Assembly: GCF_044324875.1 (NCBI RefSeq) | Contig: NZ_CP172185.1 | DNA length: 64,000 nt | Source: Escherichia coli | GTDB taxonomy: Bacteria; Pseudomonadota; Gammaproteobacteria; Enterobacterales; Enterobacteriaceae | Strand: one strand, 5' to 3' | Part shown: piece after piece, positions 1,997 through 40,569 of the stretch | Layout of the letters: every line of letters starts with the position of its first letter | Numbering within the stretch: position 1 is the stretch's first letter | Position numbers and translations under genes: made by a program | Notes under the pieces: model-generated | The model's input: only the letters and a program-made list of their open reading frames with translations | Database searches by the model: none | Told to the model about the DNA's origin: nothing

Positions 1997-3652
1997 ATGA
2001 CTCATCTTCCCCACTGGTGGCAAAACGGCGTTATCTACCAGATTTATCCAAAGAGTTTTCAGGACACCACGGGTAGCGGCACCGGCGATTTACGTGGCGT
2101 TATCCAACGCCTGGACTATCTGCATAAACTGGGCGTTGATGCCATCTGGCTAACCCCCTTTTATGTCTCTCCCCAGGTCGATAACGGTTACGACGTAGCG
2201 AATTATACGGCGATTGATCCCACCTATGGCACGCTGGACGATTTTGACGAACTGGTGACGCAGGCAAAATCTCGCGGGATTCGTATCATTCTCGATATGG
2301 TGTTTAACCATACCTCTACCCAACATGCCTGGTTTCGCGAGGCGCTGAACAAAGAAAGCCCTTACCGCCAGTTTTATATCTGGCGCGATGGCGAACCAGA
2401 AACGCCACCGAACAACTGGCGTTCAAAATTTGGCGGTAGTGCGTGGCGCTGGCATGCGGAAAGCGAACAGTACTATTTGCATCTCTTTGCACCAGAACAG
2501 GCGGATCTCAACTGGGAGAATCCAGCGGTACGCGCAGAGCTGAAAAAAGTCTGTGAGTTCTGGGCCGATCGTGGGGTCGACGGGTTGCGGCTGGATGTGG
2601 TGAATCTGATCTCCAAAGATCCGCGTTACCCTGAAGACCTGGATGGCGACGGGCGTCGCTTCTACACCGACGGGCCACGAGCACACGAGTTTTTGCACGA
2701 GATGAACCGCGATGTGTTTACGCCACGCGGGTTAATGACCGTAGGTGAAATGTCCTCCACCAGCCTTGAGCATTGCCAGCGATACGCGGCTCTGACAGGC
2801 AGTGAATTGTCGATGACCTTTAATTTTCATCACCTGAAGGTCGATTATCCCGGTGGTGAGAAATGGACGCTGGCTAAACCTGACTTTGTGGCGTTGAAAA
2901 CATTGTTCCGCCACTGGCAACAAGGAATGCACAACGTGGCATGGAATGCCTTGTTCTGGTGTAACCACGATCAGCCGCGCATTGTTTCTCGCTTTGGTGA
3001 TGAAGGTGAATACCGCGTGCCTGCGGCAAAAATGCTGGCGATGGTGCTGCATGGCATGCAGGGAACGCCGTATATCTACCAGGGCGAAGAGATTGGCATG
3101 ACCAACCCGCATTTCACGCGCATTACTGACTATCGCGACGTGGAGAGCCTCAATATGTTTGCCGAGCTGCGCAACGATGGTCGTGATGCCGACGAGTTAT
3201 TGGCAATCCTCGCCAGTAAATCCCGTGACAACAGTCGCACCCCCATGCAATGGAGCAACGGCGATAATGCCGGGTTTACGGCTGGCGAACCGTGGATTAG
3301 CCTGGGCGATAACTATCAGGAAATCAACGTAGAAGCTGCGCTGACCGATGAGTCCTCGGTGTTTTACACCTACCAAAAGTTAATCGCACTGCGTAAGCAA
3401 GAAGCCGTCCTGACATGGGGCGATTACCAGGATCTGCTGCCAAACAGCCCTGTATTGTGGTGCTATCGCCGTGAATGGAAGGGGCAAACCTTGTTGGTCA
3501 TTGCCAACCTTAGCCGTGAGACCCAACCCTGGCAGCCAGGGAAAATGCTCGGCAACTGGCAGCTTGTGATGCATAACTACGAAGAAGCCTCACCACAACC
3601 CTGTGCCATGACTTTACGGCCTTTTGAGGCTGTCTGGTGGTTACAGAAGTAA
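1997..3652 (+). CDS. treC: Trehalose-6-phosphate hydrolase
   Basis: 551-aa product starting MTHLPHWWQNGVIYQIYPKSF (GH13 alpha-amylase family); ATG at 1997 inside longer ORF-track call 1850..3652. Confidence 0.96.
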   Translation: MTHLPHWWQNGVIYQIYPKSFQDTTGSGTGDLRGVIQRLDYLHKLGVDAIWLTPFYVSPQVDNGYDVANYTAIDPTYGTLDDFDELVTQAKSRGIRIILDMVFNHTSTQHAWFREALNKESPYRQFYIWRDGEPETPPNNWRSKFGGSAWRWHAESEQYYLHLFAPEQADLNWENPAVRAELKKVCEFWADRGVDGLRLDVVNLISKDPRYPEDLDGDGRRFYTDGPRAHEFLHEMNRDVFTPRGLMTVGEMSSTSLEHCQRYAALTGSELSMTFNFHHLKVDYPGGEKWTLAKPDFVALKTLFRHWQQGMHNVAWNALFWCNHDQPRIVSRFGDEGEYRVPAAKMLAMVLHGMQGTPYIYQGEEIGMTNPHFTRITDYRDVESLNMFAELRNDGRDADELLAILASKSRDNSRTPMQWSNGDNAGFTAGEPWISLGDNYQEINVEAALTDESSVFYTYQKLIALRKQEAVLTWGDYQDLLPNSPVLWCYRREWKGQTLLVIANLSRETQPWQPGKMLGNWQLVMHNYEEASPQPCAMTLRPFEAVWWLQK

Positions 3653-3663
3653 ATCTTCGCTAA

Positions 3664-3694
3664 GCCCCGGTAATGCCTGTCATTCCGGGGTTTT
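3664..3694 (+). terminator. Rho-independent terminator after treC
   Basis: GC hairpin (CCCCGG...CCGGGG) followed by TTTT immediately 3' of treC stop. Confidence 0.6.
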
Positions 3695-3716
3695 GCCTGT
3701 CAGTATGTTGTTTTTG

Positions 3717-3900
3717 TTGATTTTATAATCAAAAAATTCATTAAAAAATTTACATATCGCTGTAGCGCCCGTCATCCGTACGCTCTGCTTTTTACTTTGA
3801 GCTACATCAAAAAAAGTTCAAACATCCTTGATGCAAAGCACTATATATAGACTTTAAAATGCGTCCCAACCCAATATGTTGTATTAATCGACTATAATTG
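3717..3900 (+). promoter_or_regulatory. nrdDG promoter region: FNR-like half-site palindrome TTGATTTTATAATCAA (3717-3732), two NrdR-box-like AT-rich palindromes (CACTATATATAG at 3839-3850; CAATATGTTGTA near 3872-3883), -10 TATAAT at 3894-3899
   Basis: Motifs read from sequence; nrdDG is known to be FNR-activated and NrdR-repressed; exact site assignment is inference. Confidence 0.4.
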
Positions 3901-4045
3901 CTACTACAGCTCCCCACGAAAAAGGTGCGGCGTTGTGGATAAGCGGATGGCGATTGCGGAAAGCACCGGAAAACGAAACAAAAAAACCGGAAAACGTCTT
4001 TCCCAATTTCTGTGGATAACCTGTTCTTAAAAATATGGAGCGATC

Positions 4046-6184
4046 ATGACACCGCATGTGATGAAACGAGACGGCTGCAAAGTGCCGTTTAAATCAGAGC
4101 GCATCAAAGAAGCGATTCTGCGTGCAGCTAAAGCAGCGGAAGTCGATGATGCCGATTATTGCGCCACTGTTGCTGCGGTTGTCAGCGAGCAGATGCAGGG
4201 CCGCAACCAGGTGGATATCAATGAGATCCAGACCGCAGTTGAAAACCAGCTGATGTCGGGTCCATACAAACAACTGGCTCGTGCTTACATCGAGTACCGT
4301 CACGATCGCGACATTGAACGTGAAAAACGCGGTCGCCTGAACCAGGAGATCCGTGGTCTGGTCGAGCAGACCAACTCCTCGTTACTCAACGAAAACGCCA
4401 ACAAAGACAGCAAGGTGATTCCAACCCAGCGCGACCTGCTGGCCGGGATCGTGGCTAAACACTATGCACGCCAGCACCTGCTGCCGCGTGACGTGGTGCA
4501 GGCACATGAGCGTGGCGATATTCACTATCACGATCTCGATTACTCGCCGTTCTTCCCGATGTTCAACTGCATGTTGATCGACCTGAAAGGCATGCTGACC
4601 CAGGGCTTCAAGATGGGGAATGCCGAGATTGAACCGCCGAAGTCGATCTCTACGGCAACCGCTGTAACTGCGCAGATTATTGCTCAGGTCGCCAGCCATA
4701 TTTATGGCGGCACCACCATTAACCGTATCGATGAAGTGCTGGCACCGTTTGTCACCGCCAGCTACAACAAACATCGCAAGACCGCAGAAGAGTGGAACAT
4801 CCCGGACGCCGAAGGCTACGCTAACTCTCGAACCATCAAAGAGTGCTACGATGCCTTCCAGTCGCTGGAGTACGAAGTAAACACCCTGCACACCGCCAAC
4901 GGTCAAACACCGTTTGTGACCTTTGGTTTTGGTCTGGGCACCAGCTGGGAGTCGCGCCTGATTCAGGAATCTATCCTGCGTAATCGTATCGCAGGCCTCG
5001 GTAAAAACCGTAAAACTGCGGTGTTCCCGAAACTGGTGTTTGCGATTCGCGATGGCCTGAACCATAAAAAAGGCGATCCGAACTACGACATCAAACAGCT
5101 GGCGCTGGAGTGCGCAAGCAAGCGCATGTATCCGGATATCCTGAACTACGATCAGGTAGTGAAAGTCACCGGTTCGTTTAAAACCCCGATGGGCTGCCGC
5201 AGCTTCCTCGGCGTGTGGGAAAATGAAAACGGCGAGCAGATCCACGATGGTCGTAACAACCTCGGCGTGATCAGCCTGAACCTGCCGCGTATTGCTCTGG
5301 AAGCAAAAGGCGATGAAGCCACTTTCTGGAAGCTGCTGGATGAACGTCTGGTGCTGGCACGTAAGGCGCTGATGACCCGTATCGCCCGTCTGGAAGGCGT
5401 GAAGGCACGCGTAGCTCCTATCCTCTATATGGAAGGTGCTTGTGGCGTGCGTCTGAATGCTGACGATGATGTTTCTGAAATCTTCAAAAATGGTCGTGCG
5501 TCTATTTCGCTGGGCTACATCGGCATCCACGAAACCATTAACGCGTTGTTCGGCGGCGAGCATGTTTACGACAACGAGCAGCTTCGCGCGAAAGGTATCG
5601 CGATTGTTGAACGTCTGCGTCAGGCGGTGGATCAGTGGAAAGAAGAAACGGGTTACGGTTTCAGTCTCTACAGCACGCCGAGTGAAAACCTGTGCGACCG
5701 CTTCTGCCGTCTCGATACCGCTGAGTTTGGCGTGGTGCCGGGCGTGACCGATAAAGGTTACTACACCAACAGTTTCCACCTCGATGTGGAGAAGAAGGTG
5801 AATCCGTACGACAAGATCGACTTTGAAGCACCTTACCCGCCACTGGCGAACGGTGGCTTCATTTGCTACGGCGAGTATCCAAACATTCAGCACAACCTGA
5901 AGGCGCTGGAAGATGTCTGGGATTACAGCTATCAGCATGTACCGTATTACGGCACCAATACGCCGATCGATGAGTGCTACGAGTGTGGCTTTACCGGCGA
6001 GTTCGAGTGCACCAGCAAAGGCTTCACTTGTCCGAAATGTGGTAACCATGACGCCTCTCGTGTGTCGGTGACTCGCCGCGTGTGCGGATATTTAGGTAGC
6101 CCGGATGCACGTCCGTTTAACGCTGGTAAGCAGGAAGAAGTTAAGCGCCGCGTTAAACATTTGGGAAATGGGCAGATAGGGTAA
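4046..6184 (+). CDS. nrdD: Anaerobic ribonucleoside-triphosphate reductase (class III RNR)
   Basis: 712-aa ORF, MTPHVMKRDGCKVPFKSERIKEAIL N-terminal ATP-cone; C-terminal glycyl-radical region and Zn-ribbon cysteines (CYECGFTGEFECTSKGFTCPKCG). Confidence 0.97.
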   Translation: MTPHVMKRDGCKVPFKSERIKEAILRAAKAAEVDDADYCATVAAVVSEQMQGRNQVDINEIQTAVENQLMSGPYKQLARAYIEYRHDRDIEREKRGRLNQEIRGLVEQTNSSLLNENANKDSKVIPTQRDLLAGIVAKHYARQHLLPRDVVQAHERGDIHYHDLDYSPFFPMFNCMLIDLKGMLTQGFKMGNAEIEPPKSISTATAVTAQIIAQVASHIYGGTTINRIDEVLAPFVTASYNKHRKTAEEWNIPDAEGYANSRTIKECYDAFQSLEYEVNTLHTANGQTPFVTFGFGLGTSWESRLIQESILRNRIAGLGKNRKTAVFPKLVFAIRDGLNHKKGDPNYDIKQLALECASKRMYPDILNYDQVVKVTGSFKTPMGCRSFLGVWENENGEQIHDGRNNLGVISLNLPRIALEAKGDEATFWKLLDERLVLARKALMTRIARLEGVKARVAPILYMEGACGVRLNADDDVSEIFKNGRASISLGYIGIHETINALFGGEHVYDNEQLRAKGIAIVERLRQAVDQWKEETGYGFSLYSTPSENLCDRFCRLDTAEFGVVPGVTDKGYYTNSFHLDVEKKVNPYDKIDFEAPYPPLANGGFICYGEYPNIQHNLKALEDVWDYSYQHVPYYGTNTPIDECYECGFTGEFECTSKGFTCPKCGNHDASRVSVTRRVCGYLGSPDARPFNAGKQEEVKRRVKHLGNGQIG

Positions 6185-9567: not shown

Positions 9568-10941
9568 TTACTGCGCGGCTTCCGCTTTCTTCGCCAGACC
9601 ATCCAGCAGTTTCTGATGGATCCCACCAAAACCGCCGTTGCTCATCACCAGAATATGGTCGCCAGGCTGAGCGGTTTTCACCACCATATCTGCCAGCGTA
9701 TCCACATCGCCGCTCCAGTGTGCAGGCTGAACGCAGGCTTCTGCCACTTCTGCCACCTGCCACGGAATATGCGCCGGTTGCAGCAGGAAGACTTCATCGG
9801 CACGACCTAATGAAGGTGCCAGATCGTCTTTGCAGATCCCCATTTTCATGGTATTCGAGCGCGGTTCCAGCACAGCAATAATGCGCGCCGTACCACCAAC
9901 TTTGCCACGCAGCGCCGCCAGCGTTGCCAGAATCGCCGTCGGGTGATGGGCGAAATCGTCATATACCGTCACACCATTCGCTTCACCACGCAACTCCAGA
10001 CGGCGACGAGCATTAATAAACGAACCCAGCGCGTTAGCGGCATCTGCCGGCGCTACACCAACATGGCGAGCCGCCGCAATCGCCATCAGGCCATTGTGCA
10101 TATTATGTTCGCCTACCAGCGACCATTTCACTTCGCCCACTTTTTCGCCATCCAGCAAGACTTCCCATTCGGAAGCATCGGTGGTCTGCTTTTTCGCCTG
10201 CCAGTGACCCTGCTCGCCCACCAGCTCCTGCTCGCTCCAGCAGCCCATCGCCATGGTCTGTTTCAGGTTGATGTCGTTTTCCGGCCAGATAATACGGCCC
10301 TGCCCCGGAACGATACGCACCAGATGGTGGAACTGTTTCTGGATCGCTTTCAGGTCGTCAAAGATATCGGCGTGATCGAACTCAAGGTTGTTGAGGATCA
10401 GCGTACGCGGGCAGTAATGGACAAATTTAGAGCGTTTGTCGAAGAAGGCGCAGTCGTACTCATCCGCTTCGATAACAAAGAAGTCGCTTTCGCCCAGACG
10501 CGCCGAGACCTCAAAGTTCCCCGGCACACCGCCGATCACAAATCCGGGTTTGTAACCGCACTGTTCCAGAATCCAGGTCGCCATTCCCGCCGTGGTGGTT
10601 TTGCCGTGTGTACCAGCAACGGCCAGCACCCAGCGGTCGCGCAGCACAAAATCGTGCAGCCACTGCGGACCTGACATATAAGGGATGTTTTTTTCCAGTA
10701 CCGCTTCCACACACGGATTTCCACGGGTCATGGCGTTGCCAATAATCACCAGATCCGGCTGCGGGTCGAGCTGGCTGGCATCGTAACCCTGAATCAGTTC
10801 AATGCCTTGCTTCTCAAGTAAGGTGCTCATCGGCGGATACACATTGGCGTCCGAACCCGTTACTTCATGGCCTAACTGGCGCGCCAGCATCGCCAGACCG
10901 CCCATAAACGTGCCACAAATTCCTAAAATATGAATGCGCAT
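9568..10941 (-). CDS. mpl: UDP-N-acetylmuramate:L-alanyl-gamma-D-glutamyl-meso-DAP ligase (murein peptide ligase)
   Basis: 457-aa [34 protein letters not shown] (Mur ligase family). Confidence 0.96.
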
Positions 10942-39948: not shown

Positions 39949-40569
39949 TTAGAGGATTTCCAGCAGTTCGACTTCAAACACCAGGGTGCTGAACGGAGGG
40001 ATGGACGCGCCTGCGCCACGCTCACCATATGCCAGTTCCTGCGGGATAGTCAGTTCCCATTTAGAACCTACCGGCATCAGAGTCAGCGCTTCAATCCAGC
40101 CTGGGATCACGCCGTTAACCGGGAATTCAGCTGGCTCGCCGCGAGCAACGGAGCTGTCAAACACGGTGCCGTCGATCAGTTTTCCGGTGTAATGAACACG
40201 AACGCGGTCGGTACGTGCCGGAATTGCGCCTTCGCCCTGGTTGATCACGCGGAATTGCAGGCCAGATTCGGTGCTATTCACACCTTCTTTTTTGGCGTTT
40301 TCTTCCAGGTATTTCACACCTTCAGCAGCCATCGCCTGGAAACGCTGACGACGAACGGCATCGGCGCGTTCGTGGATTTCACGCAGCGCGCGGTGCACCA
40401 CATCAACCGGAACAGCCGGATGTTTGCCTTCCAGCGCATCAGCAATGCCTGCAACCAGTGCTTCTGGCAGCAGCCCTTCCAGGCCAGATTCACTCAGTTG
40501 TTGCCCTACCTGCAAACCAATGCCGTAGCTTGCTTGCGCTTCGATGGTGTCAAAAGTTGGGGTGGTCAT
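39949..40569 (-). CDS. fklB: FKBP-type peptidyl-prolyl cis-trans isomerase
   Basis: 206-aa product [32 protein letters not shown]... from ATG 40567-40569 with AAGGAAA RBS; ORF track extends 53 codons upstream. Confidence 0.95.

Follow-up and report, generated by a model that had tools for sequence, protein, structure and literature searches.

At oriC, arrays of low-affinity DnaA-ATP sites lie between high-affinity anchor boxes. DnaA is also found upstream of nrdD, a gene of the anaerobic ribonucleotide reductase. In the available excerpts of a ChIP-seq study from the Wade laboratory (Microbiology 2024, PMC11317965), DnaA is enriched 62-fold upstream of this gene, the DnaA-box consensus is given as TTATCCACA, and a double box, tTTAAGAACAggTTATCCACAg, is named, which is the reverse complement of positions 4010-4031 of the window (the whole 64-kb stretch of Escherichia coli DNA analyzed here). 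According to the same excerpts, the partner box of a double box lies 2-3 bp away, the weak boxes of the published double boxes adjoin a strong box and match the consensus at ~5-7 of 9 positions, and DnaA sites upstream of nrdD had been predicted earlier. DnaA binding upstream of nrdD is thus already published. NrdD protein levels are, in addition, increased in a DARS2 deletion (PMC12371093).

A preliminary description of the window had pointed to an 11-bp direct repeat shortly upstream of nrdD and proposed that it could be a tandem binding site for a regulator or an RNA element. Here, we compare this repeat and its surroundings with the systems named above, across E. coli genomes and across Enterobacteriaceae.

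Layout of the nrdD promoter and leader

The window carries the treBC-nrdDG region of E. coli, which is matched by 5,425 of 5,426 complete E. coli genomes. The features upstream of nrdD are collected in Table 1.

Table 1. Coordinates of features in and around the nrdD leader (window numbering).
Feature	Position	Strand	Remarks
Two FNR sites	3797..3841		published oligonucleotide (PMC10425943) matches window 3793-3846
57-bp fragment with NrdR boxes 1 and 2	3833..3889		oligonucleotide of PMC12176259 identical to window
TAAAAT, -10 hexamer	3855..3860	+	fits published start ~3868; conserved, 17 diverse taxa
Distal DnaA box, TGTGGATAA on + (TTATCCACA on -)	3934..3942	-	9/9 consensus match
Spacer between DnaA boxes, 68 nt	3943..4010		length fixed, sequence variable across Enterobacteriaceae
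Degenerate third copy of the repeat, TGCGGAAAGC	3955..3964	+	7/10 positions match; directly abuts copy 1
Repeat copy 1, ACCGGAAAACG	3965..3975	+	exact match
Repeat copy 2, ACCGGAAAACG	3986..3996	+	exact match
Proximal double DnaA box, TGTGGATAA-cc-TGTTCTTAA	4011..4030	-	reverse complement of published tTTAAGAACAggTTATCCACAg
GGAG ribosome-binding site of nrdD	4037-4040	+	
nrdD CDS, 712 aa	4046..6184	+	ATG at 4046

The two FNR sites have the sequences TTGAG-N4-ATCAA (3797-3810) and TTGAT-N4-AGCAC (3828-3841), and their centers were reported at -64.5 and -33.5 relative to the nrdD start of transcription (PMC10425943). Placing these centers on the window puts the transcription start at ~3868, and the repeat therefore occupies approximately +98 to +129 of a 178-nt 5′ leader. 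Two conserved -10-like hexamers are found in this region: TAAAAT/TAGAAT at 3855-3860, between the NrdR boxes, and CTAYWAT at 3892-3898. The preliminary description had placed the repeat downstream of a TATAAT hexamer at 3894-3899. This hexamer does lie upstream of the repeat, although its correct position is 3893-3898, one base away; it is inside the transcript that starts at ~3868 and does not serve as the -10 element of that published start, but it does belong to the conserved -10-like hexamer CTAYWAT. A CAACAA-like conserved stretch is located 3′ of CTAYWAT, and, judging from sequence, the two together hint at a second nrdD transcription start near 3906. The repeat would be transcribed even from this putative start. 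Its location in the transcribed leader, which the preliminary description had considered (probable 5′ UTR or promoter-proximal region), thus holds for the ~3868 start and for any start based on TATAAT.

A promoter and terminator scan returned no informative feature in the nrdD leader. Just past the treC stop (3652), a GC-rich inverted repeat, CCCCGG...CCGGGG, is followed by TTTT (~3664-3695); it looks like the treBC terminator and is absent from the consensus-scan output.

The repeat and its chance expectation

Inspection of the window confirms two exact copies of the 11-mer at the positions originally described, with a start-to-start distance of 21 bp, or two helical turns. The copies begin 81 and 60 nt and end 71 and 50 nt upstream of the nrdD ATG, in agreement with the earlier placement ~50-80 bp before the start codon. 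Within the 21-bp unit, only 11 of 21 bases are identical. The E. coli spacer as a whole is purine-rich and of low complexity, with the G-A(n)-C units GAAAAC, GAAAC, GAAAAAAC, and GGAAAAC.

To put the repeat in context, we counted exact direct repeats that do not overlap, are 11 nt or longer, and have copies 11-40 nt apart. There are 2 in the 64-kb window, while dinucleotide shuffles of the window contain a mean of 0.43 such close repeats, with at least one in 37% of shuffles. Given that it was singled out from 64 kb of sequence, the repeat does not exceed chance expectation. On the local scale it stands out: shuffling the 68-nt spacer, or the leader, produced such a repeat in just 0.35% of cases. 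The sole other close exact direct repeat of an 11-mer in the window is TTCACACCTTC (40277-40287 and 40313-40323, 36 bp apart). Matches to ACCGGAAAACG with one mismatch occur elsewhere in the window at 10275, 22803, and 40178, all three within long ORFs, and no intergenic copies of the 11-mer were found in the 64-kb window beyond the nrdD leader.

Distribution of the repeat in Escherichia and other Enterobacteriaceae

For the comparison between species, one genome per species was scanned, which yielded 80 Enterobacteriaceae nrdD loci (L001-L080). Both copies of the repeat are kept in almost all of ~5,400 E. coli genomes, and the 9-mer core CCGGAAAAC is present twice in E. albertii. The repeat is absent from the 78 other loci, that is, from E. 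whittamii, two cryptic-clade strains labelled E. coli, and every other genus. Conservation of both copies across enterobacterial nrdD leaders, by which the preliminary description had proposed to judge the repeat, is thus limited among the 80 loci to E. coli and, in the form of 9-mer cores, E. albertii. Between these two species, 7 of 68 spacer positions differ compared to 2 of 22 repeat positions, which means that the repeat has been retained no better than the sequence around it.

As for E. coli itself, 5,411 genomes contain the 86-bp segment that runs from box to box. Compared with the window, the majority allele has two changes, A3980G and T3997C, both of which are outside the 11-mers. An exact 21-bp deletion of one repeat unit is present in 3 of 5,426 genomes (C311, a7, and NCCP 15734). 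In the deletion alleles (L083, which is NZ_CP097001.1, and the matches H41 and H42), the DnaA-box spacing is 56 bp. One-copy strains therefore exist, and the copy number of the repeat is polymorphic in the E. coli population. The rarity of the deletion allele could reflect selection against loss.

In cryptic-clade strains, a different interior, CCCCG...CGGGG, is found between near-identical flanks. More generally, comparison of the window with L001, L002, L004, and L084 reveals two sharply divergent Escherichia leader types that extend over ~3888-4005 and have near-identical flanks. The first comprises E. coli and E. albertii; the second comprises E. whittamii and strains E69, SCPM-O-B-8794, and N50. 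Such a sequence pattern suggests an ancestral polymorphism or recombination.

Two consensus DnaA boxes at a nearly fixed distance

In contrast to the interior of the spacer, which is variable and largely unalignable among the 80 loci, the DnaA boxes on both sides of it are conserved. The distal box is present in 79 of 80 loci, with L049 carrying TGTGAATAA instead, and the proximal double box is conserved in all 80. In the latter, the box at 4011-4019 matches the DnaA consensus at 9/9 positions and is followed after 2 bp by a 6/9 partner. The two boxes have the same orientation and are spaced by 77 bp at 46 loci and by 78 bp at 30, together 76 of the 80. A comparable rigidity is seen upstream, and the promoter-to-leader geometry is locked in length throughout window positions 3838-4019: NrdR boxes 1 and 2 are 32 bp apart in 70 of 72 loci and NrdR box 2 is separated from the distal DnaA box by 63-64 bp in 66 of 72. 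The sole variable segment is that between the proximal box and the ATG, which ranges from 29 to 47 bp.

The PMC11317965 excerpts give 4462739 as the coordinate of the ChIP-seq peak. In K-12, the nrdD ATG (4462660) lies 79 bp downstream of this peak, which corresponds to window position ~3967, between the boxes. The coordinates in these excerpts are labelled NC_000913.2, yet the nrdD peak fits the numbering of NC_000913.3. Only the proximal double box is described there; neither the distal box nor the conserved distance of 77-78 bp is mentioned in the same excerpts.

The repeat was also compared with DnaA boxes. The best 9-mer of each copy, ACCGGAAAA, matches the consensus at only 5/9 positions and has no strong box next to it. 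Nor do the two copies form a double box: They are 21 bp from each other, and their distances to the consensus boxes are 22 and 14 bp. A search for an extra conserved DnaA box at a fixed offset in the spacer found none across 75 loci, with faint bumps at offsets 21-22, 33, and 45.

Predicted structure of the leader RNA

An RNA element, the second proposal of the preliminary description, would here take the following form: The CCGG cores of the repeat would pair in a leader hairpin that tunes nrdD mRNA stability or translation, and the A-rich loop of this hairpin might act as an Hfq-type A-rich site. We consider such an element conceivable but rather unlikely. In the predicted minimum-energy fold of the spacer, an outer stem is formed by GGAAAG (3958-3963) and CUUUCC (3998-4003), plus GAUUG/CAAUU, and an inner stem by the CCGG cores of copy 1 (3966-3969) and copy 2 (3987-3990), which closes a 17-nt A-rich loop. 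Since CCGG is self-complementary, the repeat supplies both arms of the inner stem at no extra cost; the GGAAAG arm of the outer stem belongs to the degenerate copy TGCGGAAAGC.

The window, K-12, and E. albertii share this predicted minimum-energy architecture with the divergent E69 type, whose inner stem is CCCCGU/GCGGGG and whose loop is also 17 nt long. Citrobacter has UUGG/CCAA at the equivalent place, and visual comparison shows both arms of the inner stem to vary by lineage (CCGG/CCGG, CCCCG/CGGGG, and UUGG/CCAA). When 29 thinned taxa were compared with composition-by-thirds shuffles, in which the 5′ third stays purine-rich, the middle A-rich, and the 3′ third pyrimidine-rich, the mean z was -1.1, and 24 of the 29 values were negative.

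In other respects, the fold is weakly supported. Folding of single sequences gave z values of -0.3 to -0.9 (-0.6 for the window and -0.3 for K-12), and the mean over 80 taxa was -0.8 relative to dinucleotide shuffles. RNAalifold run on MAFFT alignments produced no consensus structure for the spacer. With fixed columns, 55-56% of cells pair, compared to 52% in shuffles and 49-53% when the partners are slid by 1-2 columns; covariance-model realignment did not raise pairing beyond 56%, and only three G:C/U pairs of the named structure are ~90% kept. An Rfam scan of 3500-4300 returned chance-level matches only (E values of at least 0.66, far below gathering scores), none of them over 3900-4045, and a literature search for post-transcriptional control of E. 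coli nrdD (sRNA or UTR) found nothing. In addition, the natural 21-bp deletion eliminates the inner stem. What stands of the proposed RNA element is the pairing of CCGG cores in a predicted hairpin; its stability is not above that of shuffles, and fixed-column covariation is weak.

A separate hairpin is predicted upstream of the spacer, at ~3904-3938, with UUGUGG of the distal DnaA box as its 3′ arm. Its mean per-species z is -1.6, with 58 of 80 values below -1 and 31 of 80 below -2. The stems vary by lineage, and RNAalifold yielded no fixed-column consensus for them.

A-tract phasing and the distance between DnaA boxes

The spacer may also be viewed as DNA architecture. The phased A-tracts of the repeat would then curve the spacer and let DnaA molecules at the distal and proximal boxes cooperate, or weak DnaA-ATP sites provided by the repeat would let a DnaA oligomer bridge the 77 bp (7 x 11 bp). 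We regard this as unlikely, although several observations are consistent with it. The box spacing is strictly 77-78 bp, the DnaA ChIP peak falls between the boxes (PMC11317965), and the natural deletion amounts to exactly two helical turns. The A-tracts of the E. coli spacer are centered at 3961, 3971.5, 3977, 3983, and 3992.5, and two in-phase tracts come from the repeat. The periodicity of AA dinucleotides in the window spacer peaks at 10.5-11 bp with a normalized power of 6.8, and other taxa show a weaker AA peak of 2.2-2.3 over a baseline of ~1.1. However, this periodicity is significant in just 11 of 31 taxa, and with a lenient control. Moreover, 77 bp corresponds to 7.3 turns, which would place the two boxes on different faces of the helix in straight B-DNA. 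The weak sites required for bridging are not apparent, either in the repeat, given the 5/9 match of ACCGGAAAA, or at any fixed offset conserved across the 75 loci. Finally, the upstream interval is equally constrained in length, and the constraint may therefore not concern pairs of DnaA boxes specifically.

Regulator-site, CsrA, and leader-peptide readings

If the repeat were a tandem operator, bound by an Escherichia-specific regulator at two sites separated by two helical turns, this would account for promoter-proximal exact 11-mers at a 21-bp distance and for the retention of their cores in E. albertii. Yet the copies are missing in close relatives with an otherwise identical promoter and DnaA boxes (E. 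whittamii and the cryptic clade) as well as in other genera, the repeat changes at the rate of the spacer, and there are no further intergenic copies in 64 kb. These results do not support the regulator site suggested by the preliminary description, and we judge it very unlikely. To our knowledge, the repeat fits no consensus of FNR, NrdR, ArcA, NarL, PhoP, OmpR, Fur, CRP, or IHF. We also compared CGGAAAACGTCTTTCC with the LacI/PurR-type operator consensus, a 16-bp palindrome around a central CG. The left half of this PurR-like candidate is good, the right half is poor, and the half-site GGAAAACG lacks a proper partner; T3997C, found in the majority E. coli allele, weakens the match further.

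Binding of CsrA dimers to GGA motifs of the repeat and leader is highly improbable. There are seven GGA motifs in 3934-4040, including one per repeat copy, but two of them are within DnaA boxes and one is in the ribosome-binding site, the GG of the repeat is predicted to be in a stem and not in a loop, and no paper linking CsrA to E. coli nrdD was found.

We give virtually no credence to a leader peptide, a 27-aa uORF (MAIAESTGKRNKKTGKRLSQFLWITCS, ATG 3947 to TAA 4030) in which the repeat would encode TGKR twice in frame: Although the uORF is present in both E. coli and E. albertii, all 6 of the 6 nucleotide differences between them are nonsynonymous, which is not coding-like, a convincing ribosome-binding site before ATG 3947 is lacking, and in 38 of 81 leaders, no ORF that begins with ATG reaches 12 codons, with start, frame, and end differing elsewhere. 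The uORF overlaps the repeat and the proximal DnaA box.

Discussion

On balance, we think that the repeat is probably Escherichia-specific, slippage-prone, A-rich filler in a DnaA-box spacer of fixed length, without a dedicated reader. The position of the repeat, its distribution among taxa, and the conservation of the spacing were established directly, and DnaA binding of the region is taken from the literature (PMC11317965). In favor of filler, only E. coli and E. albertii have the two copies, and yet the DnaA boxes are present in essentially all 80 loci. Against it, the low frequency of exact 11-mer repeats in spacer shuffles and the survival of the 9-mer cores in E. albertii have to be considered.

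If the repeat is filler, it most likely originated by local duplication or slippage, since an exact one-unit deletion of 21 bp is the classic outcome of slippage between direct repeats. The 11-mer would have no sequence-specific reader. Selection appears to concern the pair of DnaA sites and how much DNA or RNA separates them (77-78 bp) rather than the sequence of the 11-mer. The E. coli repeat contributes 21 bp, two helical turns, of in-phase A-tracts and also provides both arms of the short inner stem predicted for the leader hairpin. Because the 21-bp period coincides with the 10.5-11 bp AA periodicity and with the predicted CCGG:CCGG pairing, the repeat may contribute to a shape that is under selection.

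As an element, then, the repeat is ordinary, and it can be set aside as a candidate regulator site. More deserving of attention is the layout around it, with an invariant box spacing of 77-78 bp, a rigid interval upstream, and two variable segments that both have hairpin-forming potential. Tentatively, and with more doubt than confidence, we suggest that the repeat may be the E. coli version of a module conserved in geometry but not in sequence. In such a module, all intervals from the NrdR boxes to the proximal DnaA box would be length-locked (32, 63-64, and 77-78 bp), and both variable intervals would be capable of forming hairpins, the first of which would use half of the distal DnaA box as an arm. 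DnaA might control the anaerobic ribonucleotide reductase through it either by a spacing-dependent nucleoprotein complex that bridges two DnaA sites across a curved spacer or by a structured leader RNA in which identical UGUGGAUAA elements compete for one complementary arm.

The locus is of some relevance to the coupling of replication status, represented by DnaA, to dNTP supply: In the leader of the anaerobic reductase, the distance between two consensus DnaA sites is almost invariant, and an equally rigid interval precedes them. The natural strains with the 21-bp deletion, in which the distance between the boxes is changed by two helical turns, provide material for a direct test.

Compared with known systems, the repeat resembles slippage-prone intergenic direct repeats in its 21-bp period, the clean loss of one unit in three isolates, and the G-A(n)-C units, but it differs from them in that identity between the units is restricted to 11 of 21 bases. 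The leader is similar to structured 5′ leaders with stabilizing or translation-modulating stem-loops, since the spacer and the segment before the distal box are hairpin-capable in each species; it differs from them by the lack of an Rfam match, by its weak fixed-column covariation, and by its modest stability. Unlike the oriC arrays, the nrdD spacer is without conserved weak boxes in intermediate registers, and its interior is not conserved; what it shares with oriC are two consensus boxes of the same orientation 77 bp apart, equal to seven 11-bp steps, and, at the proximal box, the 2-3 bp spacing rule of double boxes. The closest system is the DnaA-bound nrdD region itself (PMC11317965), which is analogous to DnaA control of nrdAB. 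The repeat is not a DnaA box of this region (5/9); it sits between its double box and a second consensus box.
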